Virus record (IMG/VR): IMGVR_UViG_3300009431_000002
Location: 137,922 to 201,921 of that record
Reading direction: 5' to 3' (one strand)
From: a virus
Taxonomy: Duplodnaviria > Caudoviricetes
Length of the DNA stretch: 64,000 bases
The position numbers and the translations under genes were made by a program. The first letter of the stretch is position 1. Each line of letters starts with the position of its first letter. This document shows positions 7,701-24,121 of this stretch, one piece after another. A model generated the notes under the pieces. It was not told where the DNA came from. It searched no databases and saw nothing but the letters and a program-made list of their open reading frames with translations.

Positions 7701-10700
7701 TGGCCTTCTCGAACACCGGGTTCGGCATGGGCTCGGCCAGCCGGATGTGGGACCAGCGCTTGCCGTCCACACCGCCCGTGGCGTAGGGGTCGAACAGCCC
7801 GCCGCGCTCCGGCTTGAGGTCCTTGCCCCGGAACATCAGGCCCGGGTCCTTCAGTTCGCCGCTGGACATCCGCAGGATCTGCTCGTCGGTGAGGGGCGCG
7901 AGGTTCAGGGTCGAGCCCTGCTTCTTGACGTCGACGCCCAGCACGTTGAGGTAGCCGTTGAACTTGTCGAAGGCGAACGAGGTGGACGGCGGTGGGAGCT
8001 GCTCCCCAGTCTGCAGGGCCATCCACAGCTCGGGGTTCTTCTGGCTCTTGTAGGTGGCCATCTCCCGGATGTTGGCCTTCGCTCCATGAGCCAACATGGC
8101 GTACATGCCCAACGCGTCCATGGCCTGGGCGCCGTGGGCACCACCGCCCTTCGGAACCTCGTTGACGCTGTACGCGTACCCGGCCCCGCCCGCGCGGGCG
8201 TGGGACTTCTTGTCGATCTGGTGCTTGAGCTTGAGGATGTACTGGTCGCCCGTGAGGATCGGCCCCAGGCTCTGCCCGGACTTGGGGTCCACCAGCTCCT
8301 CGGTGTCGGACAGGCCCTCCTTCGCCAGCTCCGCCTTCATCTCCTTGGCGTAGTTGCGGTTGGCCCCGCCGAAGTTGTTGGTGACGTACCGCTTGCCCCG
8401 CTTCCGGGCGATCTTCCCGGCCATCGTCTCGAGGACCTGGCCGAGGTTGATGCGGCCGGGGATGCCAGCCGGGTTGAGCAGGACCTCGACCGGGGCGCCC
8501 TCTTCGCCAGAGGCGCGCGGCATCTCGTGGTCAGGCAGCACCGCCGTGACGATGCCCTTGTTGCCGTGGCGTCCGACCAGCTTGTCCCCGACGCGGGCAG
8601 GCTCCTCGGTGGCGACGTGGACGCTGACGTCCTTGCCCCGCTTGACGACGCGGACCACCCGGCCCTTCGTGTCCTTGTCCCAGACGATGGGCTTGGGGTC
8701 CATGTCCCGCACGAGGCTCTTGTGCAGCCGCGCCCGCATGCGACGCTCGCTGGTCTGCTCCGGCTTCTTCAGCGCGGCGACGAGGATGTCCCCCTCGTTG
8801 ACCTCCTGCCCCACCTGGATGACGCCGTCGTCGTCGAGCTTGTCGTAGACCTCGCGCTGCACGCGGTCGGGTGGCGCGTACGCGCGGAACTTCTTCTTGT
8901 CCAGGACCGTGTTCTTGGTCAGCCGCATGCTCTTGCGGTGCATGTGCTGGGACTTGAGCTTCTCGGCCGCGGACTCGGAGACGACGATGCCGTCCTCGAA
9001 GTTGTACCCACGGTACGGGATGTAGGCCACCCGGAGGTTCTTGCCCAGCGCGAGCTTGCCTTCGCGCGTGAAGTTGGTGTCGGCCACCGTCTGGCCGCGC
9101 TTGACCTTGTCCCCCTTCTTCACGAGGGGCTCGGAGTGCAGGACGCTGGACGCCTCGTTGAGCGGGAAGTGGTCGTAGAGCTGGACCTCCTCCAGCTTCC
9201 CGGCCTTGCTCCGGATCTTGATGGCGCCGGGCCTCACCGACACCACGGTGCCTTCCACCGGGGACTCGTGGGAGTTGAACTGGCCCAGCACGTCCTCGAA
9301 GGTGGACCTCACCTCGGTCTTGGACTGCACCAGCGGCTCGTCGCGGTCCACCAGGGGCACGGCCTGCTCCTGCTGCCGGGACGCCGTCATGGCCCTGTTG
9401 CCCTGGTTGTTCTGCAGGAAGGGCACGAGGTTGGTGGCCATGCTGAACAGGCCCTTGGCCGACGGGAGGATGTAGTCCACCTCGCTGGCCGGCACCTGCA
9501 TCACCTCGCCGCCCGGGCCGCTGACCGTCACCTCCTTACCGATGGGGACGAGCCGGTTCTTCACCTTCTTGTACTGGTCTGGGAAGGCGACGGTGGAGCG
9601 GTGCGCCTTGTGCGGATCGATCTTCTCCCGGCGGCCCGTCTTCGTGTTGTAGGCCTGGATGTAGAGGGTCTTGCCCTTCCGCGACACCCCCAGCGGGAGC
9701 TGGAGGGTGATGCCGGTGCGGTCACCCTCCGGGGTGTGGATGGGGTCGAGGAAGCCGAGGTGCGTCGGGTCGATGAGCTGGTCGGCGTCGGTCAGGGTGT
9801 GGGTGCTCTTGACCCCGCCCTCGCCCATGATGGTGGTCTTGGACTGGCCGGAGATGAACTCCAGCGGGTTGACCTGGTCGGGCATCTGCGACAGCTGGGT
9901 CTGGGTGAAGAAGGTCTTGATGGGCTTGTCGAACAGCCCGGGGGTCACGACCTCCCTGACGTCGGCCTTGCGGTCGATGTTGTTCTCCATCTTCCGCTGC
10001 AGATCCCAACGGCCGCGGGTCAGCCGCTCGGCCACGAAGTCGTCGACCGACAACGCGTCCTTGTAGAACAGGTGCTCACGCGCGTCCGGGGTGTCCTCGC
10101 CCCTCGAGATCCGCGCGAGCTTGTGGGCCGAGGCCAGGAGCGACGGGCCGCTCACCTTGTCGTAGGCCTTGCCCAGGGTGATCTTCGTGCTGTCGGGGCG
10201 CAGCACGGTCGTGCCGAACTCATCTCGGAGGTGGCGCTCGGCGTCCTCGATGCTGGGTGCCTGCTTGCCCGTCGACGCCTTGTAGAAGGCGCGCATGGCG
10301 ACGTCGTGCTTCTCCTTCTTCCCCTGGTTGAGGATCCCGCGGCCCAGCTCGCGCTCGATGGTGTCGTCGTCGACCCCCAGCACCTTGAGCATCGGGTAGA
10401 GCGGGATGTGGGAGTTGCCGTACCGGACCAGGAACCGCCGGTCCTCCGGGTGGAACCGGAGCCGGAAGTTCTTGCCTTTCGCCATGTTCCACTGGGACTC
10501 CAGCTCACCCTTGGCGCTGACGCGGTGGTACACCCCAGCCTTCAACCGGAACTGGTTGTCGACCTGGTACTCCTTGCCGTCGACGATGTAGGAGTGCCGC
10601 TTGGTCACGCGGGGCAGGTTGCCCACGCGCATGGACTTGCGGCTGATGACCTTGCCCGTCTCCTTGTTGACCAGGGAGACGTCGGCCATAACAGGGTCAG

Positions 10701-10890
10701 CCCAAGTCCTGCCCTTGAGCTTCGCGTCCTGCTGGGACCGGATGTCGTCGATGCCCTTCTTGTCGTCGACCCAGACCCGGTGGAGCTCCAGCCGGTTCTC
10801 TCGCCCCTCGAAGGGGAACATCGACGAGATGGCGTCGCTGACACGGTCTTTGAGGGCACCGTAGGAACCCTCTGGGTTCAGTGTCGCCAT
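4744..10890 (-). CDS. rpoBC: DNA-directed RNA polymerase, fused beta-beta' single polypeptide, 2048 aa
   Basis: Beta motifs QLSQ..DQ.NPL, TPEG, GYNFED, GDKLVGRHGNKG (8554-8589); beta' catalytic NADFDGD (6781-6801), bridge helix RKGMIQKTKETAKPG, trigger loop GEPATQLSMRAFH; junction VLGVDVKK-QG-STLNLAP near 7915-7926 with no stop. Confidence 0.97.
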   Translation of the reverse strand: MATLNPEGSYGALKDRVSDAISSMFPFEGRENRLELHRVWVDDKKGIDDIRSQQDAKLKGRTWADPVMADVSLVNKETGKVISRKSMRVGNLPRVTKRHSYIVDGKEYQVDNQFRLKAGVYHRVSAKGELESQWNMAKGKNFRLRFHPEDRRFLVRYGNSHIPLYPMLKVLGVDDDTIERELGRGILNQGKKEKHDVAMRAFYKASTGKQAPSIEDAERHLRDEFGTTVLRPDSTKITLGKAYDKVSGPSLLASAHKLARISRGEDTPDAREHLFYKDALSVDDFVAERLTRGRWDLQRKMENNIDRKADVREVVTPGLFDKPIKTFFTQTQLSQMPDQVNPLEFISGQSKTTIMGEGGVKSTHTLTDADQLIDPTHLGFLDPIHTPEGDRTGITLQLPLGVSRKGKTLYIQAYNTKTGRREKIDPHKAHRSTVAFPDQYKKVKNRLVPIGKEVTVSGPGGEVMQVPASEVDYILPSAKGLFSMATNLVPFLQNNQGNRAMTASRQQEQAVPLVDRDEPLVQSKTEVRSTFEDVLGQFNSHESPVEGTVVSVRPGAIKIRSKAGKLEEVQLYDHFPLNEASSVLHSEPLVKKGDKVKRGQTVADTNFTREGKLALGKNLRVAYIPYRGYNFEDGIVVSESAAEKLKSQHMHRKSMRLTKNTVLDKKKFRAYAPPDRVQREVYDKLDDDGVIQVGQEVNEGDILVAALKKPEQTSERRMRARLHKSLVRDMDPKPIVWDKDTKGRVVRVVKRGKDVSVHVATEEPARVGDKLVGRHGNKGIVTAVLPDHEMPRASGEEGAPVEVLLNPAGIPGRINLGQVLETMAGKIARKRGKRYVTNNFGGANRNYAKEMKAELAKEGLSDTEELVDPKSGQSLGPILTGDQYILKLKHQIDKKSHARAGGAGYAYSVNEVPKGGGAHGAQAMDALGMYAMLAHGAKANIREMATYKSQKNPELWMALQTGEQLPPPSTSFAFDKFNGYLNVLGVDVKKQGSTLNLAPLTDEQILRMSSGELKDPGLMFRGKDLKPERGGLFDPYATGGVDGKRWSHIRLAEPMPNPVFEKAILTFTGLKNKDYQAVIAGEKTLDGKTGPEAIRARLAAIDPRQQLETLRRQAETTKAVSTMAKLRKQIRFLEALVANDLTPDQAYFTSVVPVMPPVMRPVSVMESGKLNDSDINGLYKSLGITNIQLRDYDPGLGEKTKSKLTAELYDGLRALMMTGSTINGRKHRGVMETMKGVPQPKDSFFQKNLVSRRQDLSMRSTIIPEPDMGLDEVGIPYKLAKETYKPFVVRKLVREQGYVPAEAQHLVRTNSKVARHALERVMEERPVLLKRDPVLHKFGVMAFKPKLVGGKAIRIHPLVTSGYNADFDGDQMSAYVPLAKEAVEEARKLFPSNNLFNTTTGRVMYSPGHEAQLGLYRLTEWGKKTSHRFDSPAQVAAKARKLGLGMTDVVSVKGRETTLGRILLDRVLPEGMRGDAQLLHSKDFRMSKGPTKDLLTRMAKEHSADFGDVVNDLKDMGNDYAYESGASFTLDDFQAQQAVRDRALAGVHKAAKRIQKMKSLTQEEKDQRLVDLYSKATEDLSRAIRPKLERQGNHALEMVNAGARGNWDQVRQILIAPMLVKDAADRIVPVPITKSYAEGLDSASYFTAMHGARKGMIQKTKETAKPGALTKDVVNSAMNLVVVDGDAPDDADDGISADPEDREVIGRYLARPVKLRGGDVLPRNTEVTDRVQTRMKNSGVRRVSIRSPLKSVAPKGLYARDYGNLPDGQLPDPGTNIGVIASQALGEPATQLSMRAFHEGGVAASKSGRSTDKFTRVQDLLRMPKVLADSATLATTTGTVERVEKDAEVGGLNIWVKGKRHYVPEHLVNEKIKLRKGVKVRKGDRLSGGPINPHEMLPLTNINTVRGYLADEVHKAYSDAGPVLRRNVETAVRAITDLGVVDDAGDTDLLPGDLVSTSNVGYHNKKRKKPVKFTPILRGVTQTPLDMQEDWMARLQYQKLKDTIVDGALRGWSSNIHGLHPIPALAYGSEFGQPEKGTPGTTEFRVGY

Positions 10891-10911
10891 GGAACGTCCA
10901 GTTGTGCCATC

Positions 10912-10940
10912 AGGCTACAGTGCAAGGGATGCTGTGGCAA
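10912..10940 (-). promoter_or_regulatory. sigma70-type promoter TTGCCA-N17-TAGCCT for the RNAP/virion operon
   Basis: -35 at 10935-10940 (5/6 match), -10 at 10912-10917 with T-12, A-11, T-7 kept, 17-nt spacer, 21 nt before the rpoBC ATG. Confidence 0.6.
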
Positions 10941-10950
10941 CGGGTACAAG
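10919..10950 (+). promoter_or_regulatory. Putative phage-sigma promoter AGTGCAA-N17-GGTACAAG
   Basis: Same bipartite motif as 17269-17299; lies 29 nt upstream of the first gene of a plus-strand operon. Confidence 0.6.
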
Positions 10951-10979
10951 TAGAGTAACCAACAGAGGAGGTCTGCTGC

Positions 10980-11186
10980 ATGATTGAAATCGTACCCACC
11001 GAAGACCACACCCTCGACGATCTGGACGACGAGCCCATCGTGCTCGCCGGCCCGGGCGATGACGAGGATGACAACGATGACGAAGAGGAGGACAATGAGG
11101 AGGAGGTCGACGAGGACCGGGAGGACCGGACGAGTCCAGAGATCCTCGACGACGCCGTCGATGAGGCGATCTACGGCGAGGAGTAG
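10980..11186 (+). CDS. Small highly acidic protein, 68 aa
   Basis: SD GGAGG 8 nt upstream; Asp/Glu-rich; first gene after the putative phage promoter. Confidence 0.7.
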   Translation: MIEIVPTEDHTLDDLDDEPIVLAGPGDDEDDNDDEEEDNEEEVDEDREDRTSPEILDDAVDEAIYGEE

Positions 11187-11188
11187 CC

Positions 11189-11290
11189 ATGTTCTGGACG
11201 CTGGTGGGCGTCGGCCTGTTCCTGGGGCTGATGCTGTACATGAGACATTCGAGCGGGGACTTCGTGGCCTCGATGACCCGCTCGACCTGA
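11189..11290 (+). CDS. 33-aa single-pass membrane peptide (MFWTLVGVGLFLGLMLYMR...)
   Basis: Hand translation; SD GAGGAG; GC3-rich codons; hydrophobic N-terminal 17 residues. Confidence 0.55.
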   Translation: MFWTLVGVGLFLGLMLYMRHSSGDFVASMTRST

Positions 11291-11709
11291 CCGCCGACGA
11301 CGCGGCGCCCGACGCTACGTTCGCACTGGCGTACTGCACCCTGCTCGCCCACGACATCATCGCTGAGGCGTTGGACGGGGACCCCGAGGACTGGCCCGAC
11401 TACATCCAGCTGTGCTGCGACGAAGTGAACTGCGCCGAGTGCGCGCTCCTCGCCGGCTTCCTGGAGGGTTCCGAGTTCTCGTGGGTCTGCGCCACCTGCG
11501 CCACCGCCTTCCCACACCACATCGGCTTCTGGATCTCGGGGACCTGCGACGCCTGCGACGGCGTCGTCACAACAGGTACACGCCGCTCCCCCGTCGTCAC
11601 GACCGACGACGACCACGCCGAGTCCTGCGTCCTTCAACTGATCGAGGAGCAGCCGGTCCTCCGCGACCGGCTCCGCCGGATGCAAGCACTGGTGGAGCGG
11701 CATGCGTAG
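11287..11709 (+). CDS. Cys-rich hypothetical protein (start uncertain)
   Basis: Coding-like part of track ORF 10984-11709; CCDEVNCAEC, CATC, CDAC motifs; no ATG/GTG where the coding signal begins, only a CTG overlapping the upstream TGA. Confidence 0.55.
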   Translation: MTADDAAPDATFALAYCTLLAHDIIAEALDGDPEDWPDYIQLCCDEVNCAECALLAGFLEGSEFSWVCATCATAFPHHIGFWISGTCDACDGVVTTGTRRSPVVTTDDDHAESCVLQLIEEQPVLRDRLRRMQALVERHA

Positions 11710-12007
11710 GGCGCTACGATTCAGCGACCTCACGCGCCGCGCCAAGGAGGACCGAGAGGAGGCCCTCCGCCAGGACGACGCCGGCGAACCACGAGTCATC
11801 TGCGACTACTGCGACCAGCCAATCGTGCCCGGAGAGGTCGGCTTCGCCATCCAGCAATTCGAGGTGGTGGTGAGCAACAAGTCCGGGCGCGACGTCTACC
11901 AGGACATCCACATGGAGGACGGGTCCTCCGAGAAGTGCTACCACTTCACGTGTCTCGCCGAGCACATCACCCAGCCGTGCATCATCGGAGCCGAGCATGA
12001 AATGTGA
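11702..12007 (+). CDS. Zn-finger protein (C-x2-C...H-x2-C), 101 aa
   Basis: CDYCD...YHFTCL; paralog of next gene. Confidence 0.7.
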   Translation: MRRALRFSDLTRRAKEDREEALRQDDAGEPRVICDYCDQPIVPGEVGFAIQQFEVVVSNKSGRDVYQDIHMEDGSSEKCYHFTCLAEHITQPCIIGAEHEM

Positions 12008-12266
12008 CTGGTGCGACTGCGAGTTCGAGCCCGATGAGGAGGCCATGCTGGTCATCGAGGGGCAGATGACCCTCTCCCCCAAGTCCGAGCGCCTGGTGCT
12101 GGGCAAGGAGATGACCCCCAAGTACTTCCACAAGGCCTGCCTCTACGAGGTGGCCATGCACGCGATGGAGCTCGACGACGAGTACCTCGCCCAGGTCGGC
12201 GCCAACGTGCGCGAGATGCTGGAGGAGGAACTGCGCGAGAAGATCTACGACGAGCTGACTGCCTGA
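11997..12266 (+). CDS. Zn-finger protein (C-x2-C...H-x2-C), 89 aa
   Basis: CDWCD...FHKACL; paralog of previous gene; last gene before terminator. Confidence 0.7.
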   Translation: MKCDWCDCEFEPDEEAMLVIEGQMTLSPKSERLVLGKEMTPKYFHKACLYEVAMHAMELDDEYLAQVGANVREMLEEELREKIYDELTA

Positions 12267-12281
12267 CGACACAGTGTCGTC
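12265..12281. repeat. Dispersed palindrome copy 1 (GACGACAC-A-GTGTCGTC)
   Basis: Perfect 8-bp arms with 1-nt centre; core CGACACWGTGTCG at 12267-12279. Confidence 0.85.
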
Positions 12282-12287
12282 GACGCC

Positions 12288-12311
12288 GAGTGGGGGCCGC
12301 CCCACTCTTTT
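12288..12311 (+). terminator. Intrinsic terminator GAGTGGGG-GCCG-CCCCACTC-TTTT
   Basis: 8-bp perfect stem, 4-nt loop, T-tract, at a convergent junction. Confidence 0.8.
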
Positions 12312-12320
12312 AGATCGGGA

Positions 12321-14318
12321 TCAGACGACCGCCCGCTCGAGGGGCCGGCGCGGGGGCTTCTGCTCGGGGAGGGGCTGCTGAAGCGGATTCAGCGTGTCTC
12401 GCTGGCCTCCATCGCCCTCGCTCAGCAGGGCCTGGACCATGCGGTAGATGTCGGGGCTGCCCATCCGCAGCTTCTGCATGGCCTGCGGGAACATGGCCGG
12501 CTGCTCGTCCTGGATCCGGCGCATCTCCGTGGCGATGCGTCGCGCGACGAAGCGGACGTCGACCATCTCGTTGCCGCCGGTCATCTGCCCCATGTGCATG
12601 GGGGACTGGACCTCCTGCGGGAGGTTGTCGACGTACACGGCCGCGCCGTCCGGCACACCCGGACCGATCTGCTCGCCGCGCATGACCGATGGCTGGGTCT
12701 GCGGCAGCTCGGCGTAGGACGGCGGGGACTCCGGCGGCTGCTGCATCTGCATCTGCATGTGCTGGGCCTGGATCTCGTAGCGGAGGGCCGCCAGCTGGGC
12801 CTCCCCCTGCGCCGCGGCCTGGGCCACCACCATCTCGCGGTTGGCTGCCACCTGCTTGACCAGCTCCTGCTTCTTCCGCTTCTCCTCGGTCTCCAAGTCC
12901 TCGCCGAGCTCGCGGAGGAACGTGGTGTCGGAGATCTTCATGGCCTGGTTCGCCTGGAAGTAGACCATCAGCCTCTGCAGGTCGTCGGCCATCTTGAACC
13001 GCTCGAACCGGATGGGCACCCTCGGCCAGCCGAGGAACTCGCAGATGCGGCCCATGACGAAGTCGCCAACCAGCCGGAGTTGGTCGTCGCGGTACCCACT
13101 GAACTGGTTCTCGAGGATGCGCATCGACACGTTGGTGCCGGTGTACTGCATGCCACCGAAGATGAACTCGATGGGCACGTTCATGCCCGCGATGATCTGC
13201 TCGCTCCAGACCCGCAGCTCCTGGTGGAGGATGAGCGCCCGTCCCTGGCCGCCGATCATCTCGTGGCCGAGTGGGATGGGCATCAGCGGGATGTAGTTGG
13301 GGTCCTGGCGCCAGCGAGCGATCTCCTCCTGGACCTGGTCCTTCCACTCCCCGAGGTTGATCATCGTGATGGGGTCGCCGGTCTGCCCGTTGGCCTGCGG
13401 GTACAGCACGCGCAGCGGGACGATGTGCTCCTGGGCGATCATCTCCTGGCCCTTGCGCAGGACCTGCAGGTAGAAGATGTCCTTGAGCACGGGCAGGACC
13501 AGCGGCATGCCCCAGCCCTGGTCCTTCTGGGCGATGATGGGCCGCTTGAGGTGGAACAGCGTGCCCGGCGCGAACTTCACCGACTTCTTCTTCCGCATCG
13601 CCTCGATGAAGGTGTCGGGCACCGTCTCGATGACGTTGCGGCGGCCGATGGTGATGGCGTTCTTCAGCTTCTGCGGCAGCTTGTAGAAGTAGGTCGGGTC
13701 GGTGACGCCCTCGTTGTCGTCGATCTCCACCCGCTCCGGGTCCCACCGGACCAGCCGGATGCCCTTGGCCGTCCGCATGGCCTCGTCGTGGACCTCGGCC
13801 GGCCGGCGCTCCCCGCACTCGGGGCAGGTCAGGTAGTAGACCATCTCCTGGTAGCGGTAGTGCCTGCGGAGCTTGTCGATGGGCGCCTTGTGGCCGCAGT
13901 GACGGCACTTGAGGTGCTTGACGAAGGGGAAGTGCACCGTGACGAAGGCGTTGCCGTAGTTGTAGTAGTCCAGCCCCACCTCGATCTGGAACTTGCGGAC
14001 CTGGAGCTGGTCCTCGAAGAGGTGGCGGTACCGCTCTCGGACGTCCTTGTCGTCGGCCTCGTAGATGATCTTGGTGATGGGGTACTCGGCCAGCTTGTAC
14101 ACGACCGCGTTGATGAGCGGGTTCGTGAAGAAGAAGTACCGGCACCACTGCAGCATCTGCTTGAGGCGCGCGGGGAAGTACGTCTGGGCGGCGTCGAAGA
14201 ACGGGTTGGGGTACCGCACCCCGGTCCGCTGCATGCTCGAGCCGAGCGTGACGGGCGTGCGGGAGAAGCGGGTCAGCCCGTCACCGTAGGAGACGCCGGT
14301 GTACCCGAGGCCTGGCAT
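12321..14318 (-). CDS. Probable portal protein with Zn-ribbon insert, 665 aa
   Basis: Size, helical character and motifs reminiscent of portals (NPLINAVVYKLAEY, DYYNYGNAF, WGMPLVLPVL, IIAGMNVP); CRHC...CPEC insert; Gln/Pro-rich tail. Assignment is inference. Confidence 0.6.
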   Translation of the reverse strand: MPGLGYTGVSYGDGLTRFSRTPVTLGSSMQRTGVRYPNPFFDAAQTYFPARLKQMLQWCRYFFFTNPLINAVVYKLAEYPITKIIYEADDKDVRERYRHLFEDQLQVRKFQIEVGLDYYNYGNAFVTVHFPFVKHLKCRHCGHKAPIDKLRRHYRYQEMVYYLTCPECGERRPAEVHDEAMRTAKGIRLVRWDPERVEIDDNEGVTDPTYFYKLPQKLKNAITIGRRNVIETVPDTFIEAMRKKKSVKFAPGTLFHLKRPIIAQKDQGWGMPLVLPVLKDIFYLQVLRKGQEMIAQEHIVPLRVLYPQANGQTGDPITMINLGEWKDQVQEEIARWRQDPNYIPLMPIPLGHEMIGGQGRALILHQELRVWSEQIIAGMNVPIEFIFGGMQYTGTNVSMRILENQFSGYRDDQLRLVGDFVMGRICEFLGWPRVPIRFERFKMADDLQRLMVYFQANQAMKISDTTFLRELGEDLETEEKRKKQELVKQVAANREMVVAQAAAQGEAQLAALRYEIQAQHMQMQMQQPPESPPSYAELPQTQPSVMRGEQIGPGVPDGAAVYVDNLPQEVQSPMHMGQMTGGNEMVDVRFVARRIATEMRRIQDEQPAMFPQAMQKLRMGSPDIYRMVQALLSEGDGGQRDTLNPLQQPLPEQKPPRRPLERAVV

Positions 14319-15257
14319 CTACGCCCTCCTCTCGGCCGAAGGCGCGAAGAGCGTGGTGCTGGGCGTCGTCGCCCCCGAGGGCGTGGGCGGCGGCCGCAGG
14401 GACTGCTGCCTGCGCTTGTGGTAGCCCAGCAGCTTGTCGATGCCCTTGCCCAGCGTGCCCATCGACCTGGAGCCGACCTCCCAGCCCGCGATGGATCCCC
14501 CGAAGCCGGTGGGCATCCCCGCGACCATGCCGGCGTGACCGCCGAGGTGCTGCAGCGCTCGTTCTGCGTGGCCCCGCGGCTTCCCGCCACCGAAGGCGTG
14601 CGGGTCGTCGCGCTTGACGATGTGAGGGGAGAAGGCTCCGCCGAAGCCCGCCAGCATGGACTTGCCTCCCACCGGCGCGTACTTGGTCAGCTCGCCGGAC
14701 CCAGTCCAGCCGCGGCGCGACAGCTCCTCAGCCAGCTCACGAGGCCGGGTCGCCACGTCACGGAGCCGCTGCGACTCGTCGAAGAGGTGACTCGTCTCGG
14801 CGTGGGGCCGCACGGCCTTGGCTTGCTCCCCCATCGCGCGCCGAGTGCCCGAGCCGCCGGCCCACTCCGGTGCGTACCACCTGTAGGCGCCCTCGGCCTT
14901 CCGGGTCTCCTTCATACCCTCCTGCAGCGCCTTGTGCGCGGCGGGGTCACCCCTGACGGCCTGCATGATGTCCTCGGGCAGGCCCTTGGTCTTGGCGTAG
15001 CTGGCCCAGTCGTCGAACCCGGCCCGGCGGGCCTCGAGCATCAGCCGCTGCGTGGCCCCCTCCACCGGGCTGAGGTGCTCCCAGCCCCGACGAAGGATCT
15101 GTCCCGTGCGGCGCGGGTCGAAGGTCTTGGCGGCGGTGGCGGTGCCGTGCGCCGCGGAGGTGAGCTGGTTGAGGAGGAAGCGAAGCGGGTTGGCCTGCTT
15201 CTCCAGCTCGTCCTCGAACGCATCCAGTCGAGCTGGCGTCAGGGCGCGAGAAGCCAT
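14319..15257 (-). CDS. Putative internal virion protein with FEDELEKQA leader, 312 aa
   Basis: Start revised to ATG at 15257 (SD GGAG); no Cys; Gly/Ala-rich amphipathic segments near the C-terminus. Confidence 0.65.
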   Translation of the reverse strand: MASRALTPARLDAFEDELEKQANPLRFLLNQLTSAAHGTATAAKTFDPRRTGQILRRGWEHLSPVEGATQRLMLEARRAGFDDWASYAKTKGLPEDIMQAVRGDPAAHKALQEGMKETRKAEGAYRWYAPEWAGGSGTRRAMGEQAKAVRPHAETSHLFDESQRLRDVATRPRELAEELSRRGWTGSGELTKYAPVGGKSMLAGFGGAFSPHIVKRDDPHAFGGGKPRGHAERALQHLGGHAGMVAGMPTGFGGSIAGWEVGSRSMGTLGKGIDKLLGYHKRRQQSLRPPPTPSGATTPSTTLFAPSAERRA

Positions 15258-16126
15258 GGCCGCATCATCTCCATCTGTTGGGCCAGCTGGCGCCGGCGCA
15301 GCTTCATGTACTCCCGCGCCCGCAACACTCTGGCCACGCATCGATCCACCTGGGTCTCCCCCAGATCTACTTGGTCCAGGCCCTTACCGGCAACTGATTC
15401 GTACCGCTCCTTGACCGGCCGGTAGTCGTTGATGAAGTAGCGCTCGACCTTCCCGTGCCCCAGCTTCTTCGCCGGCGAGTCCGCCGTGGGCTTGCCATCG
15501 AGGTTGTGCTCACCTCGGAAGCGCTTGGCGCAGACGTCACACGTGTCGTCCTCGAGGTCGTCCTCGTCCTCGTTGCCGCAGCTGGTACACCTGTACATCG
15601 GCCGCGCGGCCAGCCGCTGTGCGAAGTCCAACGGCGGCGGGAGGAACCACACGCCGTCCGACAGCGCGGCCGCGGCGACGAACCGGGCCACCTCGTCCGA
15701 GAACTTCCGGCCGTCCACACTCTCCATCATGTCCACGCCGGCCGCCAGCGCGTCGAAGGAGGGCTGCTGGATGATGTCGAACCTCGGGATGTTGTTGTTC
15801 AGCGCCTGGATGGTGGGGACGAAGGCGTCCCAGCTGATCCAGCAGGCGTCCGTGGCGTGCAGCGTCTTCACCGCCATGATCTTGTTGCGGTTCAGCTCGC
15901 TGATCTCCAGCTGTCCACCGCCGAGCAGAGCCTGCCCGAAGTACCGCTTGATGCCGTCCCACACAGCCTCCGGCACCCACTCCCACCAGTCCTTCCCGAA
16001 GGCGGTGACGATGACGGCGTCGAGGACCAAGGGGTGTGCGTCGTGGTGGCGAAAGAGCGTGGCTGGCCGAATGTCGTCCGGCTGGGTGGTCAAAGCGGTG
16101 GCCGGGGACGCATCAGCCATGCGCAA
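15239..16126 (-). CDS. Hypothetical protein with Zn ribbon (CTSC...CDVC), 295 aa
   Basis: GC3-rich ORF overlapping both neighbours in the portal operon. Confidence 0.65.
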   Translation of the reverse strand: MRMADASPATALTTQPDDIRPATLFRHHDAHPLVLDAVIVTAFGKDWWEWVPEAVWDGIKRYFGQALLGGGQLEISELNRNKIMAVKTLHATDACWISWDAFVPTIQALNNNIPRFDIIQQPSFDALAAGVDMMESVDGRKFSDEVARFVAAAALSDGVWFLPPPLDFAQRLAARPMYRCTSCGNEDEDDLEDDTCDVCAKRFRGEHNLDGKPTADSPAKKLGHGKVERYFINDYRPVKERYESVAGKGLDQVDLGETQVDRCVARVLRAREYMKLRRRQLAQQMEMMRPWLLAP

Positions 16127-17207
16127 TCGTCTGCATGCCGACAGGGCTGTGGCCCGTGTCCGAGGCCAGCCGGGCGAGCGTGACCTTGTTGATGTCGGGC
16201 AGCGACTTGAACACGGAGACGGGGTCCTTGGCGAACTGCGTGGCGAAGTCGTCGCCGAAGTGGTCCTTGAGCAGCTGCCGATTGGCAGACAGGAGCCGCA
16301 GGTCGGCCTCGGTCACGCGCTCGGCGCCCTCCACCCACACGAAGTCCTCGGCGGTCTTCTCGAAGCAGGTGGAGACGGGGTCCAGCACGTGCTGGTCCCA
16401 GAGGTGGTCGAGGCCCGTCTGCTCGTCGAACAGCGTCAGGGCCGTGGCGAGCTTCTCGGGGTTGGCGCGTTCGTCGCCGGCGGACTTCACGAGGACGTCG
16501 AGCACCGGGTGCATGCTGGCCGGCACGTACTGGCGCCGCGCCTCGATGTACATACCGGCGTCGGGAGCGAGCGCGGTGCCGGCGTACTTCTCGATGTCGT
16601 GCGATGGCACGGGGATCCCCAGGTCGGCGGCGCGGGACGCCAGCTTCGTGGCGAACTCGCGGCGGTCGTTGGGATGGAAGCGCAGCATGTTCTCCCGGAA
16701 GAAGCCCATGCCGGCGGCGACCTCCTCGTAGGAGCGCAGCGGGTACTTGCCGAGGGCCACGCAGTCCGCTTCGGCCAGCTTCTCCTGCTCCATCACCGGC
16801 GCAGTGGCCAGCACGGAGTCCACGACCTCGGCCGTCTTCACGCCATCGGCGGTGAGGGCCAGCCCGATCTTCACCAGATCCAGCGGGACCTGCATCTGGT
16901 GGGCCTCGTGGGCGTCGATCAGGTTGTTCACGACCTGCAGCTGGGCCTCCTTGGACAGGTGGCCCCGCTGGGACAGGAAGTAATGGGCGGACATCCATGT
17001 ATTGCCGGGGTCGATGGTGGCATACTTGCAGAACAGGTTGCCGTCGACGGACGCGACGAGCGCGAAGTTCTTGGCCGGCAGAGCCTGACGCTCCTCGGGA
17101 GACAGGAAGGCTGCCGTCTTGGCCATGTCGGGGAGTTGGTCCTGGGGGACGGTACTGGCGAGCAGCGCCGCCTGGTCGTCATAGACGTCGAGGATCAATC
17201 CAGACAT
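16113..17207 (-). CDS. Probable head-assembly protein, K-x-A dense, 364 aa
   Basis: SD AGGAG; first gene of portal operon; 10 of 17 Lys are followed by x-Ala. Confidence 0.65.
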   Translation of the reverse strand: MSGLILDVYDDQAALLASTVPQDQLPDMAKTAAFLSPEERQALPAKNFALVASVDGNLFCKYATIDPGNTWMSAHYFLSQRGHLSKEAQLQVVNNLIDAHEAHQMQVPLDLVKIGLALTADGVKTAEVVDSVLATAPVMEQEKLAEADCVALGKYPLRSYEEVAAGMGFFRENMLRFHPNDRREFATKLASRAADLGIPVPSHDIEKYAGTALAPDAGMYIEARRQYVPASMHPVLDVLVKSAGDERANPEKLATALTLFDEQTGLDHLWDQHVLDPVSTCFEKTAEDFVWVEGAERVTEADLRLLSANRQLLKDHFGDDFATQFAKDPVSVFKSLPDINKVTLARLASDTGHSPVGMQTIAHG

Positions 17208-17239
17208 GGAGACTCCTGTGAATGAGGCGGTCCAGTGGA

Positions 17240-17269
17240 ATCGTAGGCCCCTGCGCGCACGCGAGTCAA
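17240..17269 (-). promoter_or_regulatory. sigma70-type promoter TTGACT-N18-TACGAT for the portal operon
   Basis: -35 at 17264-17269 (5/6), -10 at 17240-17245 (4/6), 32 nt upstream of ATG 17207. Confidence 0.7.
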
Positions 17270-17299
17270 GTGCAACGTCTCCCGGGAAGCCGGCATAAG
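17269..17299 (+). promoter_or_regulatory. Putative phage-sigma promoter AGTGCAA-N16-GGCATAAG
   Basis: Same motif as 10919-10950; heads the 17-kb replication operon; no credible sigma70 promoter seen on this strand. Confidence 0.62.
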
Positions 17300-17304
17300 A
17301 AAAG

Positions 17305-17318
17305 CAGATTGTAATCTG
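17305..17318. promoter_or_regulatory. Operator-like inverted repeat CAGATT-GT-AATCTG
   Basis: Perfect 6-bp AT-rich arms just downstream of the putative promoter. Confidence 0.45.
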
Positions 17319-17346
17319 AAACCCTGCTCCGAGGAGGATGCCTATC

Positions 17347-17724
17347 GTGACCCGAGCAGCCGCGAGAGCGATTCGTTACTCAGACCTTGCGCCGTCACCG
17401 ACGACGTACCCCCGCAACCGCCCGCCGTGTTTCGGCAAGCAGTACGACCCAGCCGACGCCGAGTGCCGGCACCAGTGCTCCCACAAGAGCGCCTGTGCCC
17501 CGATCTTCCGCCAGACCCACGGGGTCCGCGTCCCCGCAACCACCACCAGCTCCGCCGTGGCGGACCGAGAGCAGACCGAGCTCCCGGAGTACACGGAGGT
17601 CGCTGCCCCCGACGAGAGCTTCTGGGCGAAGCTCGCCTTCAACTCCGCCCTGCAGGCTGTGGAGTCCGTGGTCCACGAGATGCACTACGCCATCCGCTCC
17701 GTCCCGAGGAAGGAGTACTTCTGA
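17347..17724 (+). CDS. Cys4 Zn-finger protein (PPCFGKQY...C..QC.....C)
   Basis: SD GAGGAGG 9 nt before GTG 17347 (alternative ATG 17338); four spaced Cys. Confidence 0.7.
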   Translation: MTRAAARAIRYSDLAPSPTTYPRNRPPCFGKQYDPADAECRHQCSHKSACAPIFRQTHGVRVPATTTSSAVADREQTELPEYTEVAAPDESFWAKLAFNSALQAVESVVHEMHYAIRSVPRKEYF

Positions 17725-18122
17725 TGGCCATGCTCAGCGTGGGCCAGACGTTCAAGCGATACCGCGAGCGCGCCAGGTTCAGCAGCTGTGCCGCCGTGGC
17801 TGGCCCCATGGGCATCTCGGGTGAGTACATCCGGCAGATCGAGAAGAAGGGGAAGATCCCCAGCGACAAGGTCGTGAACAGCTTCATCGAGGTCTGCCGG
17901 ATGCCGACCGAGGCTGCCGACGCCCTGCGGAAGGCGGTCGTCGCCGCCCGCCTCAAGCGCACACACGGCCGCAACCTCACCCATTTCAAGGGTGCGGACC
18001 AGGTGGCCTCCGGCGTCTGCGACGACCTCCGGGAACTGCTCGACAAGATGGGGCTCATCGAAGAGGATGTGGACGCCATCCTCGAGACCGCTCGTCAGGG
18101 GATCGTATCGAGGCTCCGGTGA
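17724..18122 (+). CDS. XRE-family helix-turn-helix regulator, 132 aa
   Basis: GQTFKRYRERARFS..AVAGPMGISGEYIRQIEKKGKIPS fits the HTH_3 pattern; TGATG coupling to upstream gene. Confidence 0.75.
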   Translation: MAMLSVGQTFKRYRERARFSSCAAVAGPMGISGEYIRQIEKKGKIPSDKVVNSFIEVCRMPTEAADALRKAVVAARLKRTHGRNLTHFKGADQVASGVCDDLRELLDKMGLIEEDVDAILETARQGIVSRLR

Positions 18123-19504
18123 TCCAGTTCCACAGGCTCGACCGAGACAAAGCGTACCGGGAATCCATGCTCTGGGTGCCCAAGTACCTCGTGCCCGTGG
18201 AGACCCTGGAGGCCTCGCTGACCTACTGGTTCACCGAGACCGACGACGAGGGCAACTCCTTCGTCGCCAAGCTGGAGTGCTGGGCGGAAGAGGCTCGGCA
18301 CTTCGTGCTGCCGCGGGAGTTCCCGCAGGAAGAGGTCCCCTGCGAGGTCGTCGACCTCTCTCCACGCACCGAGCGCGTCACGTTCAACGACGACATCGCT
18401 CCCCGCGACGACGTACAGGTCGAGGCCATGGCGGCGATGCGCGGAGCCCAGACAGGCATCCTCAACCTCGGCTGCGGCCGGGGCAAGACCGTCGTCGCTC
18501 TGGAGCGCATCGCCCGCGGCGGCGGACCCGGGCTCGTCGTGGTCAACAACACCGGCATCCAGGCGCAGTGGCGCAAGGAGGCACGCGCCCGGCTCCGACT
18601 CCCGGCGGCCGACATCGGCATGGTCGGCGGGGACAGCCCCAAACGCAACGAGCTGCTCGAGTGGATGAAGCCGCTGGTCCTCGTGACCGTCCAGACCCTG
18701 TGGCGTCGCATCGTCGAGGGCCGCGTCCCTGAGACCGTCCGTCGGCGGTTCACGACGGTGGCGTTCGACGAGGCCCACCACATGAGCGCGCCGAAGTTCA
18801 ACATCGCCAGCGGCTTCTTCACCGGCGACCGCTTCGGCCTGACGGCCACGGCTCAGCGCACCGACGGCAACGAGAGGTTCTACCTCTACCACCTGGGGCA
18901 GGTCCTCTACCGGAACATGGAGGTGGACGTACCGCCCATCTGCTACTTCGCCCACACGGGCATCGCGCCGACCGTCGCAGAGCGGAACAGGTTCTTCGTC
19001 AACGACATGGTGAACATCGGCCGCGTCCGTGAGTGGCAGGCCAAGAACGCGCGACGCAACACCATGATCGCCAGGCTGGCGAAAGACGCGGTGGGCGGCG
19101 GCAACAAGGTGATCGCCCTCACCCACAACAAGAAGGATCACATCCCGCGGCTGAAGAAGAAGCTGCCGGAGTCTGGGGAGGTGACCGGGAACGTCAAGGG
19201 CGAGGCGCGACTGGTGAATCTGCACGGGAACGACGTGGTCGTCGGGACGGTGCAGGCTGCACAGGAGGCGCTGGACAAGCCGGAGCTGAACGTCGGCATC
19301 TGGTGCACCACCTTCCCCAACGAGAACGAGTTTCAGCAGGGGACCGGCCGTCTGGCTCGCCAGTACCCCGGGAAGGACGTGGCCAAGGCCATCTTCCTGG
19401 TGGACGACGTCCCCATCTGCCACGACCACGCCCGCAAGCTGGAGCGATACGCCCGCAAGCGGGGATACCGAACCGAACACTTCAAGCTGGAGGACATCGC
19501 ATGA
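18119..19504 (+). CDS. Superfamily 2 DNA helicase (UvsW/XPB-like), 461 aa
   Basis: Walker A LGCGRGKT, DEAH box, motif III GLTAT, motif VI QGTGRLAR. Confidence 0.9.
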   Translation: MIQFHRLDRDKAYRESMLWVPKYLVPVETLEASLTYWFTETDDEGNSFVAKLECWAEEARHFVLPREFPQEEVPCEVVDLSPRTERVTFNDDIAPRDDVQVEAMAAMRGAQTGILNLGCGRGKTVVALERIARGGGPGLVVVNNTGIQAQWRKEARARLRLPAADIGMVGGDSPKRNELLEWMKPLVLVTVQTLWRRIVEGRVPETVRRRFTTVAFDEAHHMSAPKFNIASGFFTGDRFGLTATAQRTDGNERFYLYHLGQVLYRNMEVDVPPICYFAHTGIAPTVAERNRFFVNDMVNIGRVREWQAKNARRNTMIARLAKDAVGGGNKVIALTHNKKDHIPRLKKKLPESGEVTGNVKGEARLVNLHGNDVVVGTVQAAQEALDKPELNVGIWCTTFPNENEFQQGTGRLARQYPGKDVAKAIFLVDDVPICHDHARKLERYARKRGYRTEHFKLEDIA

Positions 19505-19992
19505 ACAAACCCGTCAAGATCCACACCGCCGGCCCCAATGAGAAGCAGGCCGAGTTCCGCAGGGAGCTGGAGGAGCTCTACGAGAAGGCCGAGGGCGACC
19601 ACCTCATCCTCATGTACGCCCACCCGACCGCCGCCTACATGGGCCGCCGTACGAACTCCGTGACCGACACGGTCGTCAAGCTCGAGAACGTCTGCTCCGT
19701 GCTCACGGCTCGCGTCCCGCAGGGCGGCGCCCTCGTCGGGACGGGCAAGCCGCAGATGGGCCGGGCGCTGGTGATCGAGCCCCCCGCCGGCGGCGAGCTG
19801 GGCATGGTCGAGAAGATGACGTTCCCCACGAGCATGCCCATCGCCGAGCTCCAGAACCTGTCTCCTCGGGACCAGCACCGGCTGCTGGAGAGCTACCTCG
19901 ACCTCATCGTGGGGTCCGAGCGGAACCGCGAGACCGCCCTCGGCCCCGACCCCGAGGAGGACGACGGTGAGCCGAGTCCTGTCGAAGCGTGA
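19501..19992 (+). CDS. Hypothetical protein, 163 aa
   Basis: ATGA overlap with helicase stop; GC3-rich. Confidence 0.7.
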   Translation: MNKPVKIHTAGPNEKQAEFRRELEELYEKAEGDHLILMYAHPTAAYMGRRTNSVTDTVVKLENVCSVLTARVPQGGALVGTGKPQMGRALVIEPPAGGELGMVEKMTFPTSMPIAELQNLSPRDQHRLLESYLDLIVGSERNRETALGPDPEEDDGEPSPVEA

Positions 19993-20821
19993 GCTGCTGA
20001 CCCGCGACAAGTGGGCCCGCGCCCAGATGGACGCGCTGGAGGAGGAGTACGCGGAGTGCGCGCGCTGCCCCACCATGGTCGACACCGGATGGTGGACGCG
20101 CGGCCACATCGTCTTCGGCGAGGGTGCGGCCAACGCGGACATCTCGGTCTTCGGCATCGCCCCCGGCGAGCAGGAGGACGAGACCGGGCTCCCCTTCATC
20201 GGCCCCACCGGCCAGTTGCTCGACGACCTGCTCCTGCGGGCCTGTCCCTACAAGGAGCTGGACCCCTACCGTGTCGAGCGCAACCTGAACAGAGGGGAGT
20301 GGCGCGAGGTGCGCCAGATCCTCGTGGAGAAGGAGCGGCTCTTCTACTCCAACGTCACCCTCTGTCGTCCGGTCAAGCAAGAATACAACGACCGGAAGGA
20401 CGTGATGGAGCTGCGCAACCGTGACCCGTCCAAGGTGGAGTACGACAACTGCGCCGAGCGGCTGCGCGAGACCTTGTACATCAACGACCCCTTCCTCGTG
20501 ATCGCCCTCGGAGGTGTCGCGCTCACCGCGCTGATGGCACTGGACGAACGCGTGGCCCGCTCCAAGAAGTTCAGCGTCCTCGACCTGCTGGGCGAGGTCC
20601 TCGAGCTCCAGATCCCAGGGGTCATCCGGCCCGTCCGCTACCCGCTCCTGGTGCTTCCGCACCCAGCCTTCCTGCTGCGCAAGTGGGATCCCAGAGAGCG
20701 CCGAGGCTTCGTCCAACGCACCCAGCAGGGCCTCAAGCGAGGTCTTCGCATCGTCGACACCGCAAGACACGAAACGATGGGGACGGCTGTCCCCGAACGC
20801 ACAGAGAAGAAACGGAGGTGA
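19967..20821 (+). CDS. udg: Uracil-DNA glycosylase family 4-like (Fe-S), 284 aa
   Basis: CARC...LCRP...NCAE Cys ligands, G(I)APGEQEDETGLPFIG motif A, HPAFLLR motif B. Confidence 0.88.
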   Translation: MSRVLSKRELLTRDKWARAQMDALEEEYAECARCPTMVDTGWWTRGHIVFGEGAANADISVFGIAPGEQEDETGLPFIGPTGQLLDDLLLRACPYKELDPYRVERNLNRGEWREVRQILVEKERLFYSNVTLCRPVKQEYNDRKDVMELRNRDPSKVEYDNCAERLRETLYINDPFLVIALGGVALTALMALDERVARSKKFSVLDLLGEVLELQIPGVIRPVRYPLLVLPHPAFLLRKWDPRERRGFVQRTQQGLKRGLRIVDTARHETMGTAVPERTEKKRR

Positions 20822-20823
20822 AT

Positions 20824-21279
20824 ATGAGCGAGGTCGGAGCTCAGCTCATGGAGGCGGCGCACCGCGCCATCGAGAAGTTCGAGGAGGCGGACCGCCTGTA
20901 CACGGATACCCTGGCGGAGCTGGAGGAGGAGGACCCCGAGGGGTTCCAGGAGCTCTACCGCTGCCTCGAGGAGCGCAACACCGCGGTCACGGTCGCCCGC
21001 GCGGCCGTCCGCAAGGCCAAGACCAAGGTCGGCAAGTTCCGCGTCGTCGTCAACCGCGGCGTCGAGTTCGACGTTGACGCCTTCATCGAGATGGCCAAGA
21101 AGCTGGGCATCTACGAGGAGCTGGTCGACGCCGGCGCCGTCAAGACCACCATCAACCAGACCACGCTCAAGAAGAACGTCACGGAGGACCAGCTGCAGCG
21201 CCTCAAGGAGGGCTGCGGCAAGGTCATCGAGAAGAGCGTCTCCGTGTACGGACCCAAGGAGCTGGGGACGCTGAAGTGA
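20824..21279 (+). CDS. Hypothetical protein, 151 aa
   Basis: SD GGAGG then ATG 20824; GC3-rich. Confidence 0.7.
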   Translation: MSEVGAQLMEAAHRAIEKFEEADRLYTDTLAELEEEDPEGFQELYRCLEERNTAVTVARAAVRKAKTKVGKFRVVVNRGVEFDVDAFIEMAKKLGIYEELVDAGAVKTTINQTTLKKNVTEDQLQRLKEGCGKVIEKSVSVYGPKELGTLK

Positions 21280-21674
21280 CGGGCAGCCACATCGTCCGGC
21301 GCCGGCTGGAGTTCTCGATGGAGCGCTACGCAGTGCTCCACTCAGACGCCGCGCCGGTGCGGGACGTGTGGGAGGGCCCCGAACTTCCGTTCCCGGAGGA
21401 GATCCTGGACATGATCGACAACCTCGTGACGACCGAGAACCCCGGGCGGATGACGCTCGGGTCCAACCTGGACTTCAAGGAGTTCGGCTCCGGCTTCGGC
21501 GCCCACGTCTCCCTGTCCTTCGACATCGACCAGACCACCGAGGCCGCCGAGACGGCGCGCGAGCGGGTCGGCGAGTTCCTCGTCGGGCTCGTCGCCGAGC
21601 AGACCGTGGAGGCCCAGCACATGTGGGAGGACCTGAAGTCCGGAGCCCAGGCAACGCTGAAGGCCAGCACGTAG
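21276..21674 (+). CDS. Hypothetical protein, 132 aa
   Basis: GTGA overlap; GC3-rich. Confidence 0.7.
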   Translation: MTGSHIVRRRLEFSMERYAVLHSDAAPVRDVWEGPELPFPEEILDMIDNLVTTENPGRMTLGSNLDFKEFGSGFGAHVSLSFDIDQTTEAAETARERVGEFLVGLVAEQTVEAQHMWEDLKSGAQATLKAST

Positions 21675-21698
21675 CGGTGACTGCACCGCGGAGGCGCC

Positions 21699-23057: not shown

Positions 23058-24121
23058 CCGTGCGCGGGATGGAGGACACTGTCCACGACGCCCTGCAGCG
23101 GTACGTGGGTGGACGCATCAAGCCGTCCGGGAACAACCTCCTGGTCAACTGCCCCTTCCATCCCTGGTCTCCGGGCCAGCACAAGTTCACCCTGTCCGTC
23201 AGCGTGGTCCACGGCCAGTGGGTCTGCTTCTCCTGCGGCGAGAGCGGGGGCTTCCCGCGCCTGCTGAAGAAGCTCGAGGTCCCGGCCAGTGTCCGCGACG
23301 ACATCCTCGACCCCGTCAAGTACCTCATGCAGCGGCCCACCAAGCCGTCGCTGCCGACCCACCGCGACCCGTTCGCGGCGGAGCACTCGCTCCCGGAGGC
23401 CGTGCTCGGCGTCTACGAGTTCTGCCCCGTCTCGCTGGTCGACGAGGGGTTCGACGAGGTGCTGCTGCAGGACTTCGACGTCGGGTACGACTTCTCCCAG
23501 GACCGCGTCACGTGGCCTGTGCGGGACCTGTACGGCACGCTCACCGGCATCATGGGCCGCGGCGTGGACGGCACCTACCCGAAGTACAAGGGCTACAAGC
23601 GGGAGGACTACGACGACGAGACGCAGAGCCTCATCCGAGGCTACGAGTTCCGGCGGTCGCTGTTCCTGTGGAACATGGACCGCGTGCACGCCAGCCTGTA
23701 CCCGCGGCGCCACCCGGGCGTCGTCGTCCTCTGCGAGGGGTTCAAGGCTGCGCTGTGGTGCATCCAGCATGGCTTCCAGCACGCTGTCGCCATCATGGGT
23801 GCGCGCATCAGCTTCACCCAGGCCGAGATGCTCCGGCGCCTCGGTGCCGACATCATCATCTTCCTCGACGAGGACGACGCGGGGGTCAAGGGATCCATCG
23901 CCGCGTACGACATGCTCCGGCGGTCCTGCAGGGTGGAGTTCGCCATGTACCCCGAGGAGGCCCACCAGCCGGACGACCTGGATCCCGACGAACTGCACGA
24001 CGTACTGAACAACCCGGTCACCCTGAAAGCGTGGCTGGACATCGCCTTCCACAACGAGATGTGGGAGGAGTGGAGGAACCGACGATATGAGTTTTCGCAG
24101 AAGCGCAGGCGGCGAGCGTAG
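23054..24121 (+). CDS. dnaG: DNA primase, DnaG-like, 355 aa
   Basis: CPFH...CFSC zinc ribbon, TOPRIM EG and D-x-D-x-x-G (FLDEDDAG). Confidence 0.92.
   Translation: MTVRGMEDTVHDALQRYVGGRIKPSGNNLLVNCPFHPWSPGQHKFTLSVSVVHGQWVCFSCGESGGFPRLLKKLEVPASVRDDILDPVKYLMQRPTKPSLPTHRDPFAAEHSLPEAVLGVYEFCPVSLVDEGFDEVLLQDFDVGYDFSQDRVTWPVRDLYGTLTGIMGRGVDGTYPKYKGYKREDYDDETQSLIRGYEFRRSLFLWNMDRVHASLYPRRHPGVVVLCEGFKAALWCIQHGFQHAVAIMGARISFTQAEMLRRLGADIIIFLDEDDAGVKGSIAAYDMLRRSCRVEFAMYPEEAHQPDDLDPDELHDVLNNPVTLKAWLDIAFHNEMWEEWRNRRYEFSQKRRRRA

Follow-up and report, generated by a model that had tools for sequence, protein, structure and literature searches.

Two promoter classes placed back to back at the polymerase and portal operons of an Arash-like phage genome

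Salmonella phage Arash (PMC10585845) is the only cultured relative of the phage considered here that is described in the papers we searched. In purified Arash virions, the sigma factor Gp10 and the two RNA polymerase (RNAP) subunits rank with the most abundant proteins (PMC10585845). A related genome is represented by an uncultured viral contig of 201,921 base pairs (bp) (IMG/VR record IMGVR_UViG_3300009431_000002) with 67% guanine plus cytosine (GC). We analyzed its final 64 kilobases (kb; 137922–201921), hereafter the window, whose numbering is used unless genome positions are specified. Two intergenic gaps of the window, 10891–10979 and 17208–17346, each carry a sigma70-type promoter on the minus strand (class A) placed back to back with a promoter of a phage-specific type on the plus strand (class B). 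The class A promoters precede the RNAP operon in the first gap and the portal operon in the second.

Arash belongs to the same lineage. Its portal protein and Gp10 are each 30% identical to their counterparts here, its RNAP is about 32% identical over the matched part, its virions hold the RNAP subunits and the sigma factor, and the same two promoter types are found in its DNA. Arash carries 35 intergenic TATAAG sites on the minus strand, opposite its large blocks of structural genes, and 25 of them match GGTATAAG, with the consensus cTGGTATAAGtAAaGT. Moreover, a TTGAAT...TAGTCT site before the Arash portal gene lies back to back with a TATAAG promoter. Arash differs in that separate genes encode the beta and beta′ parts of its RNAP, in that it encodes a second sigma factor (gp196), and in the class B −35 element, which reads CCAAT or TCAAC rather than GCAA. 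Five positions of the Arash sequence (OQ632216.1 at 26744, 66491, 100247, 138594, and 173368) share an identical stretch of at least 44 nucleotides (nt) centered on the palindromic cttaTATAAGg.

Phages with polymerases of other types offer further points of comparison. In N4 and the crAss-like phage phi14:2, a virion RNAP transcribes early genes and the host RNAP later ones, and no common motif was found for the early genes of phi14:2 (bioRxiv 10.1101/2020.03.07.982082). The present phage would resemble them in that a virion-carried polymerase would be expected to start infection, in that presumed later genes have host-type promoters, and in that the polymerase gene is among the putative late virion genes. 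In contrast, the virion polymerases of N4 and phi14:2 are single-chain and sigma-free, whereas here a beta-beta′ chain would act with its own sigma factor at a bipartite −35/−10 promoter. The N4 virion polymerase recognizes hairpin promoters.

The jumbo phages phiKZ and AR9 possess virion and non-virion multisubunit RNAPs (PMC7598289). Shared with them are a multisubunit-type RNAP that is, or in our case would be, carried in virions, a phage-specific consensus for early promoters, and a possible independence from the host RNAP. However, those phages have two split polymerases, whereas the genome examined here encodes one fused polymerase and a sigma70-family factor and has putative late promoters of host consensus. 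PhiKZ and AR9 are not known to encode a canonical sigma factor. The divergent promoters PR and PRM of phage lambda, finally, are both served by one host holoenzyme, and repressors make the switch between them. As in lambda, the divergent promoters described below are close enough for polymerase footprints to overlap, so that a polymerase bound at one may influence the other. Unlike the lambda pair, they belong to different classes, and their −35 elements abut, coincide, or interdigitate.

Structure and conservation of the two divergent regions

The two gaps are true divergent operon heads because operons flank them in opposite orientation. In the first region, the class A promoter of the RNAP operon consists of the −35 hexamer TTGCCA (10935–10940, minus strand) and the −10 hexamer TAGCCT (10912–10917, minus strand), which are separated by 17 nt and end 21 nt before the RNAP start codon (ATG at 10890). 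The class B promoter on the opposite strand has its −35 element (core GCAA, 10922–10925) within the sequence AGTGCAA (10919–10925, plus strand), which falls inside the 17-nt spacer of the class A promoter. Its extended −10 element, GG-TACAAG (10943–10950, with TACAAG at 10945–10950), lies 29 nt before an ATG at 10980. In the second region, the portal-operon promoter comprises TTGACT (17264–17269, minus strand) and, after a spacer of 18 nt, TACGAT (17240–17245, minus strand), located 32 nt before the ATG at 17207. Here AGTGCAA (17269–17275, plus strand; core GCAA at 17272–17275) has base 17269 in common with the class A −35 element, and the extended −10 element GG-CATAAG (17292–17299, with CATAAG at 17294–17299) precedes the GTG at 17347 by 47 nt. 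At both loci, AGTGCAA is positioned 18 to 19 nt upstream of the GG-YAYAAG element.

A preliminary description of the window, made from the letters of the sequence, had reported these sites and proposed that two promoter types, one on each strand, stand back to back. The sequences and coordinates that it gave are all correct, and the arrangement is confirmed, with interdigitating cores at the first locus and abutting cores at the second. The minus-strand sites are indeed sigma70-like, as had also been proposed. Both TTGCCA and TTGACT agree with TTGACA at five of six positions, and both −10 hexamers have the form TAnnnT at a distance (17 and 18 nt, respectively) within the 16 to 18 nt of primary-sigma promoters. 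The second promoter matches the consensus at 9 of 12 positions and was flagged by a consensus scan. We judge the sites to be real because of their context, namely the strong excess of the bipartite class B pattern in the genome (20 matches where 1.1 are expected) and the conservation of the hexamers in the nearest relatives.

For comparative analysis, 80 related loci were retrieved with the RNAP protein as query. The nearest relatives (L004, L005, and L008) have 67% identity in RNAP, and distant ones have 36 to 47% identity and GC contents of 35 to 70%. Conservation of the promoter overlap in related genomes, suggested earlier as a check, is seen at both regions. On the polymerase strand, the gap upstream of the polymerase gene in the nearest relatives reads CTTATG-4-TTGCCA-9-TTGCAG-3-TAGCCT, where numerals denote intervening nucleotides. 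The genome examined here has the same architecture, reading CTTGTA-4-TTGCCA-9-TTGCAC-2-TAGCCT. For the portal-operon gap, the corresponding series are CTTATG-19-TTTCGC/TTGACT-18-TACGAT in the nearest relatives and CTTATG-18-TTGCAC/TTGACT-18-TACGAT here, with the slash marking adjoining elements. The element bases are identical to those of the nearest relatives at 21 of 24 positions in the first region and 22 of 24 in the second (43 of 48 together), whereas identity outside the elements is 43 to 53% (39 of 74 and 53 of 124 positions, respectively).

All four hexamers of each region are therefore conserved islands between diverged spacers. TTGCCA and TAGCCT are identical in L004, L005, and L008, with differing flanks, and L004 and L005 also share TACGAT and CATAAG with the genome examined here. 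The class B −35 element is kept, reading CTGCAA in the first region of these relatives and GCGAAA in their second, but the heptamer AGTGCAA is not. Thus, the idea that AGTGCAA is a phage-type element stands insofar as it marks a promoter of the phage lineage, whereas the heptamer comprises just the −35 half and is not itself the conserved unit. Conservation of the portal-operon promoter extends further: the 18-nt spacer and a TAnnnT −10 hexamer are present in all eight relatives compared (35–70% GC), and the −35 hexamer is TTGAC[ATC] in seven of them, the eighth (L031) having TTGCAG. In distant relatives, this promoter faces an opposite-strand GCAA(A/G)-N17/18-(T/C/G)A(T/C)AAG. The two-class, back-to-back architecture is therefore real and conserved.

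AGTGCAA was also considered as a stand-alone repeat or operator, and this candidate was rejected. There are only seven copies in the genome, mostly in coding DNA, the heptamer is lost in the closest relatives, and no palindrome is common to both regions. Within the window, it occurs twice where 3.3 copies are expected and is unenriched by itself, and both copies are those of the two loci.

Two sigma-type promoters need about 48 bp between their −10 elements (2 × [6-bp hexamer + 18-bp spacer]) to share no core DNA. In the seven divergent regions of the genome that could be scored, the distances are 27 (first region), 29, 38, 48 (second region), 48, 168, and 168 bp. At 27 bp, either −35 element of the first region falls within the spacer of the opposite promoter, and at 48 bp, the −35 hexamers of the second region abut with base 17269 in common. 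Because the cores overlap or abut in this manner, two holoenzymes would hardly fit the first region together and would probably interfere in the second. Among relatives, the distance ranges from 27 to 46 bp at the polymerase locus and from 42 to 62 bp at the portal locus, and in several of them the same CTTGCA/G base pairs serve as the −35 element in both directions, with a gap of 42 bp. In a relative with 67% RNAP identity, the interdigitated geometry is maintained within 1 bp (27 versus 28) even though intervening bases have changed. Close packing is thus conserved at both loci, yet no single geometry is fixed.

The two long divergent regions (genome 57897–58235 and 87529–87745) both have exactly 168 bp from the class A −10 element to the nearest class B −10 element. 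Region 87529–87745 contains a perfect hairpin, GTCGACGACACTGTGTCGTCGAC, of which a near-copy is located at genome 103967–104009.

Two promoter codes across the genome and its relatives

Class B was defined by the pattern G[AC]AA-N16-19-(GG)YAYAAG, and its expected frequency was calculated from a first-order Markov model. The pattern G[AC]AA-N16-19-YAYAAG has 20 matches in the genome versus 1.1 expected. The genome is 91% coding, and although only 9.3% of it is noncoding, 15 of the 20 matches are intergenic (P = 3e-12). All 15 of these are on the plus strand, and for 10 of them a start codon on that strand follows at a distance of 17 to 58 nt. The aligned consensus is roughly cgGCAAa, about 16 nt, ccGGyAyAAGGg, and then a CAAC tract; G-rich bases and the CAAC tract are frequent after the −10 element. 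This element ends in G where primary sigma factors require T (−7).

The class B motif is present in G001, G002, L005, L010, L014, L015, L027, L058, and Arash. Two larger relative contigs carry many copies, in the form GCAA(G/A)-N17-GGATAAG in G001 (61% GC) and GCAAA-N17-GGTATAAG in G002 (50% GC). The fact that class B is kept in relatives of 35 to 70% GC and in Arash indicates a promoter code that belongs to the lineage and is independent of the host. The preliminary description was therefore right to regard the plus-strand promoter as phage-specific, since the code is conserved across the phage lineage whatever the GC content. Its suggestion that the plus-strand promoters serve replication genes holds for the second region, which heads a 25-gene replication operon, but not for the first, which precedes genes for five small proteins without a confident Pfam match. 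Strand counts of GGYAYAAG alone over 68 nonduplicate relative loci (76 versus 92) were uninformative owing to noise from coding DNA, and a strand bias is visible only among the closer relatives.

Class A was scanned for as TTG plus at least four of six matches, N16-19, and TAnnnT. Upstream of minus-strand operon heads it takes the form (G)TTGACA-like, N17/18, TAnnnT, and it heads the polymerase, portal, and other minus-strand operons as well as tRNA operons. Its genome total of 17 matches versus 13 expected is unenriched, but 12 of the 17 are intergenic (P = 1.6e-9), and 11 of these 12 are on the minus strand. The segregation of the two classes by strand is strong (Fisher P = 9e-7). A class A census of G001 and G002 was too noisy with rough gene calls.

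Several class A promoters have their −10 element just 6 to 7 nt before an ATG (window 61669–61707; genome 57897–57935, 87529–87570, and 13830–13870), so transcripts from them would be leaderless. The site at 61669–61707, for example, reads TTCACT-N17-TAGAGT followed by 6 nt and the ATG. The octamer CGCGTGCG is found in the spacers of three class A promoters (window 17246–17263; genome 10340–10425 and 57897–57935) at varying positions.

Which polymerase reads which class

We consider it reasonably probable that the phage class is read by a virion polymerase with its sigma factor and the sigma70 class by the host enzyme, with local interference where the two meet. A code that is common to the lineage needs a reader that is common to the lineage, which makes a Gp10-type sigma factor together with the phage polymerase the obvious candidate for class B. 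The window encodes an orthologue of Arash Gp10 (30% identity, E = 6e-33). When aligned to RpoS and RpoD, this phage sigma factor differs in region 2.3–2.4. The altered positions, counted from the alignment, are Y425T, W433H, W434Y, and Q437S in what we take to be the numbering of Escherichia coli sigma70. These changes would be consistent with a noncanonical −10 element that ends in G rather than T.

The phage beta-beta′ polymerase, directed by the phage sigma factor, would thus transcribe class B, and since Arash carries RNAP and sigma factor in its virions, the small genes and replication genes of this class would be early or middle genes. For this particular phage, orthology and the position of the polymerase gene in its operon suggest that virions carry the enzyme, the proteomic evidence being that for Arash. 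The preliminary description further had the host enzyme produce the sigma factor that is packaged for the next cycle. This found no support, as the sigma gene (63276–63965) has an upstream region that extends beyond the contig end, and its promoter lies off the contig.

Class A, in turn, would fall to the host holoenzyme at a late stage of infection. Any primary sigma factor can read this class, and a search of the complete 202-kb genome for a second sigma factor (queries PF04542, PF04545, PF04539, TIGR02937, and Arash gp196) revealed none beyond the known one and two weak region-4-like matches. The simplest assumption is therefore that the host holoenzyme reads class A, as with the later genes of N4 and phi14:2, and we lean only slightly toward this assignment. 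The assignment of enzymes to classes as a whole is plausible from promoter and protein sequences. It also lends itself to experiment. Rifampicin cluster I of the phage polymerase (window 9790–9890, RNAP residues ~334–367) reads ...LSQMPDQVNPLEFISGQSKTTIMGEGG. Counted along the alignment, the residues presumed to correspond to H526, R529, and S531 of E. coli beta are G, K, and T. The phage polymerase is thus probably insensitive to rifampicin, and a test with this drug should discriminate.

Several observations weigh against the division of labor between phage and host enzymes. The promoter of the first region is weak by consensus, with 8 of 12 matches, and is under the scan threshold. One plus-strand operon (genome 127587–127657) is headed by a class-A-like TTTACA-N18-TACCAT, so class is not strictly tied to strand. 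Polymerases have been assigned by parsimony only. A search of sequencing runs found no RNA run with this sequence, and one marine DNA run with a small share of its words, which makes all start sites and timings predictions. The remaining adverse points concern other possible readers of class A. Arash has a second, more canonical sigma factor in gp196, and G002 also has a second one, such that class A could be read by the phage core enzyme with another sigma factor. A 200-residue protein (genome 63207–63809, plus strand) combines a weak sigma-region-4-like stretch (E ~1e-3) with a Lar-like zinc ribbon and may be a transcription factor expressed from a class B operon. Lastly, the N18 spacer of the portal promoter is invariant whatever the host, which might mean that the reader is particular to this lineage.

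These last points bear on an alternative in which all transcription is driven by the phage. Both classes would be read by the beta-beta′ polymerase, with the host RNAP dispensable as in phiKZ: class B through the virion sigma factor, and class A through an unrecognized late sigma factor, a factor from a class B gene, or a borrowed host sigma factor. We regard this as a serious possibility but a distinctly less probable one. It gains from the second sigma gene in Arash and G002, from the TTGACT-N17-TACTAT that precedes Arash gp196 itself, from the weak sigma-like domain of the 200-residue protein, and from a portal-promoter −35 element and N18 spacer that are nearly unchanged across relatives of 35 to 70% GC. 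In addition, the 80 related loci, having been retrieved through their RNAP homologue, all encode the polymerase. However, no second sigma factor is detectable in this complete genome, and among relatives such a factor is sporadic whereas class A is conserved. Furthermore, any bacterial primary sigma factor reads TTGACA/TAnnnT, and an extra factor is unneeded.

The preliminary description went further than a division of labor and regarded the overlap as a selected competitive switch, in which an injected phage holoenzyme and the host RNAP compete for the same 30 to 40 bp. Early occupancy of class B would keep the late operons for polymerase and portal silent, and its loss would turn them on. 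In favor of such a switch, close packing is kept across relatives at both loci, the interdigitation is maintained to within 1 bp while bases between the elements have changed, and CTTGCA/G doubles as a −35 element for both directions in several relatives. Nevertheless, we hold this model to be unlikely. Two of the seven scorable divergent regions have 168 bp between their −10 elements, most promoters of either class are unpaired, and gaps of 27 to 62 bp among relatives show that the geometry is not fixed. Short intergenic regions in a 91% coding genome would push promoters together in any case, and the enzymes involved are themselves putative. A built-in early-to-late switch by overlap is thus not general in this genome, and it is at best a local interference effect. 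Under the division of labor that we favor, the overlap would be a local matter of interference between promoters at two central late operons, and would not be the general early-to-late switch of the phage.

Similarly doubtful is the broader proposal that the interlocked −35 elements at the polymerase and portal operons, be they shared, abutting, or interdigitated, form a protein-free, DNA-encoded temporal switch in a whole lineage that has two promoter codes. According to this proposal, GCAA-N18-GGYAYAAG would be read by the virion-delivered phage polymerase-sigma holoenzyme and a host-type code would serve late genes, and occupancy by the injected enzyme would physically close the late promoters until the early enzyme leaves.

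That the minus-strand hexamers are chance matches in less GC-rich intergenic DNA, and that transcription reaches the polymerase and portal operons from some other site (read-through being one example), is very improbable: the low score of the first promoter and the genome total of 17 versus 13 expected would fit such a view, but in relatives with diverged spacers the −35 and −10 hexamers of either promoter are unchanged, class A matches are strongly enriched in intergenic DNA and biased by strand, and homologous promoters exist in eight relatives.

Gene blocks around the regions and implications of the code

The gene map was derived from codon-based gene calls and domain searches (Pfam and PHROG). 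The RNAP gene (4744–10890, minus strand) is the first gene of the minus-strand operon served by the first region. It encodes a fused beta-beta′ RNAP of bacterial type with 2048 residues, identified by Pfam Rpb2_6 (7e-64) and Rpb1 domains, and relatives of it were found. Within the same operon (window 3941–4743), an open reading frame for 261 residues (3950–4735) has a third-position GC content below 0.8 and was not accepted by the codon model; it could represent a recent acquisition, or not be a gene at all. On the other side of the first gap is the operon of five small genes (10980–12266, plus strand), called as genes and searched against Pfam, for which the class B site of this gap is the predicted promoter.

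This operon converges with the portal gene, and between the two a consensus scan found a terminator-like, GC-rich hairpin followed by TTTT (12288–12307). The hairpin has no U-tract on the minus strand, so read-through from the portal operon toward the polymerase operon is conceivable. The portal operon (12321–17207, minus strand) has four genes, encoding proteins of 364, 263, and 312 residues and then the 665-residue portal protein, which was recognized by homology (30% identity to Arash portal gp204, 67% to the L005 homologue, and weak PHROG portal matches).

Beyond the second gap, the 25-gene replication operon (17347–34208, plus strand) encodes an XRE-family helix-turn-helix (HTH) protein, a helicase, UDG, DnaB, a primase, PolA, and a RecA-like protein. 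The XRE-family HTH protein (HTH_31, 6e-8) is the product of gene 2 (17724–18122), which has the same position in L004, L005, and L008, and it is a candidate regulator of the adjoining promoters. A long minus-strand block of large proteins, presumably of the tail, ends with the phage sigma factor gene (63276–63965, minus strand), whose product also has a Pfam Sigma70_r3 match (5e-10). A DNA search of a phage collection with window 4744–12000 gave no match, a search of viral contigs with the 364-residue protein found no relative, and Rfam gave no match on 10000–18500.

In our view, the Arash-like group, whose members carry a beta-beta′ polymerase together with a sigma factor of their own, corresponds to the "mReC" lineage of PMC7481178. 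Our literature search found no paper on promoters or transcription of Arash-like phages, and the Arash paper is without promoter or transcript analysis (PMC10585845). Thus, the promoter code of this lineage appears undescribed in the papers searched.

Our analysis offers a testable promoter code for Arash-like phages, consisting of a lineage-specific class, putatively early or middle, in which G replaces T at the end of the −10 element, and a host-like class for virion, polymerase, and tRNA operons. Two conserved loci at which the classes interlock are now pinpointed. Such a code would allow the timing of gene expression to be annotated in hundreds of metagenomic relatives. It also bears on the way in which a virus-delivered, sigma-dependent polymerase and the host enzyme share one genome, a question for which Arash provides a cultured test system.

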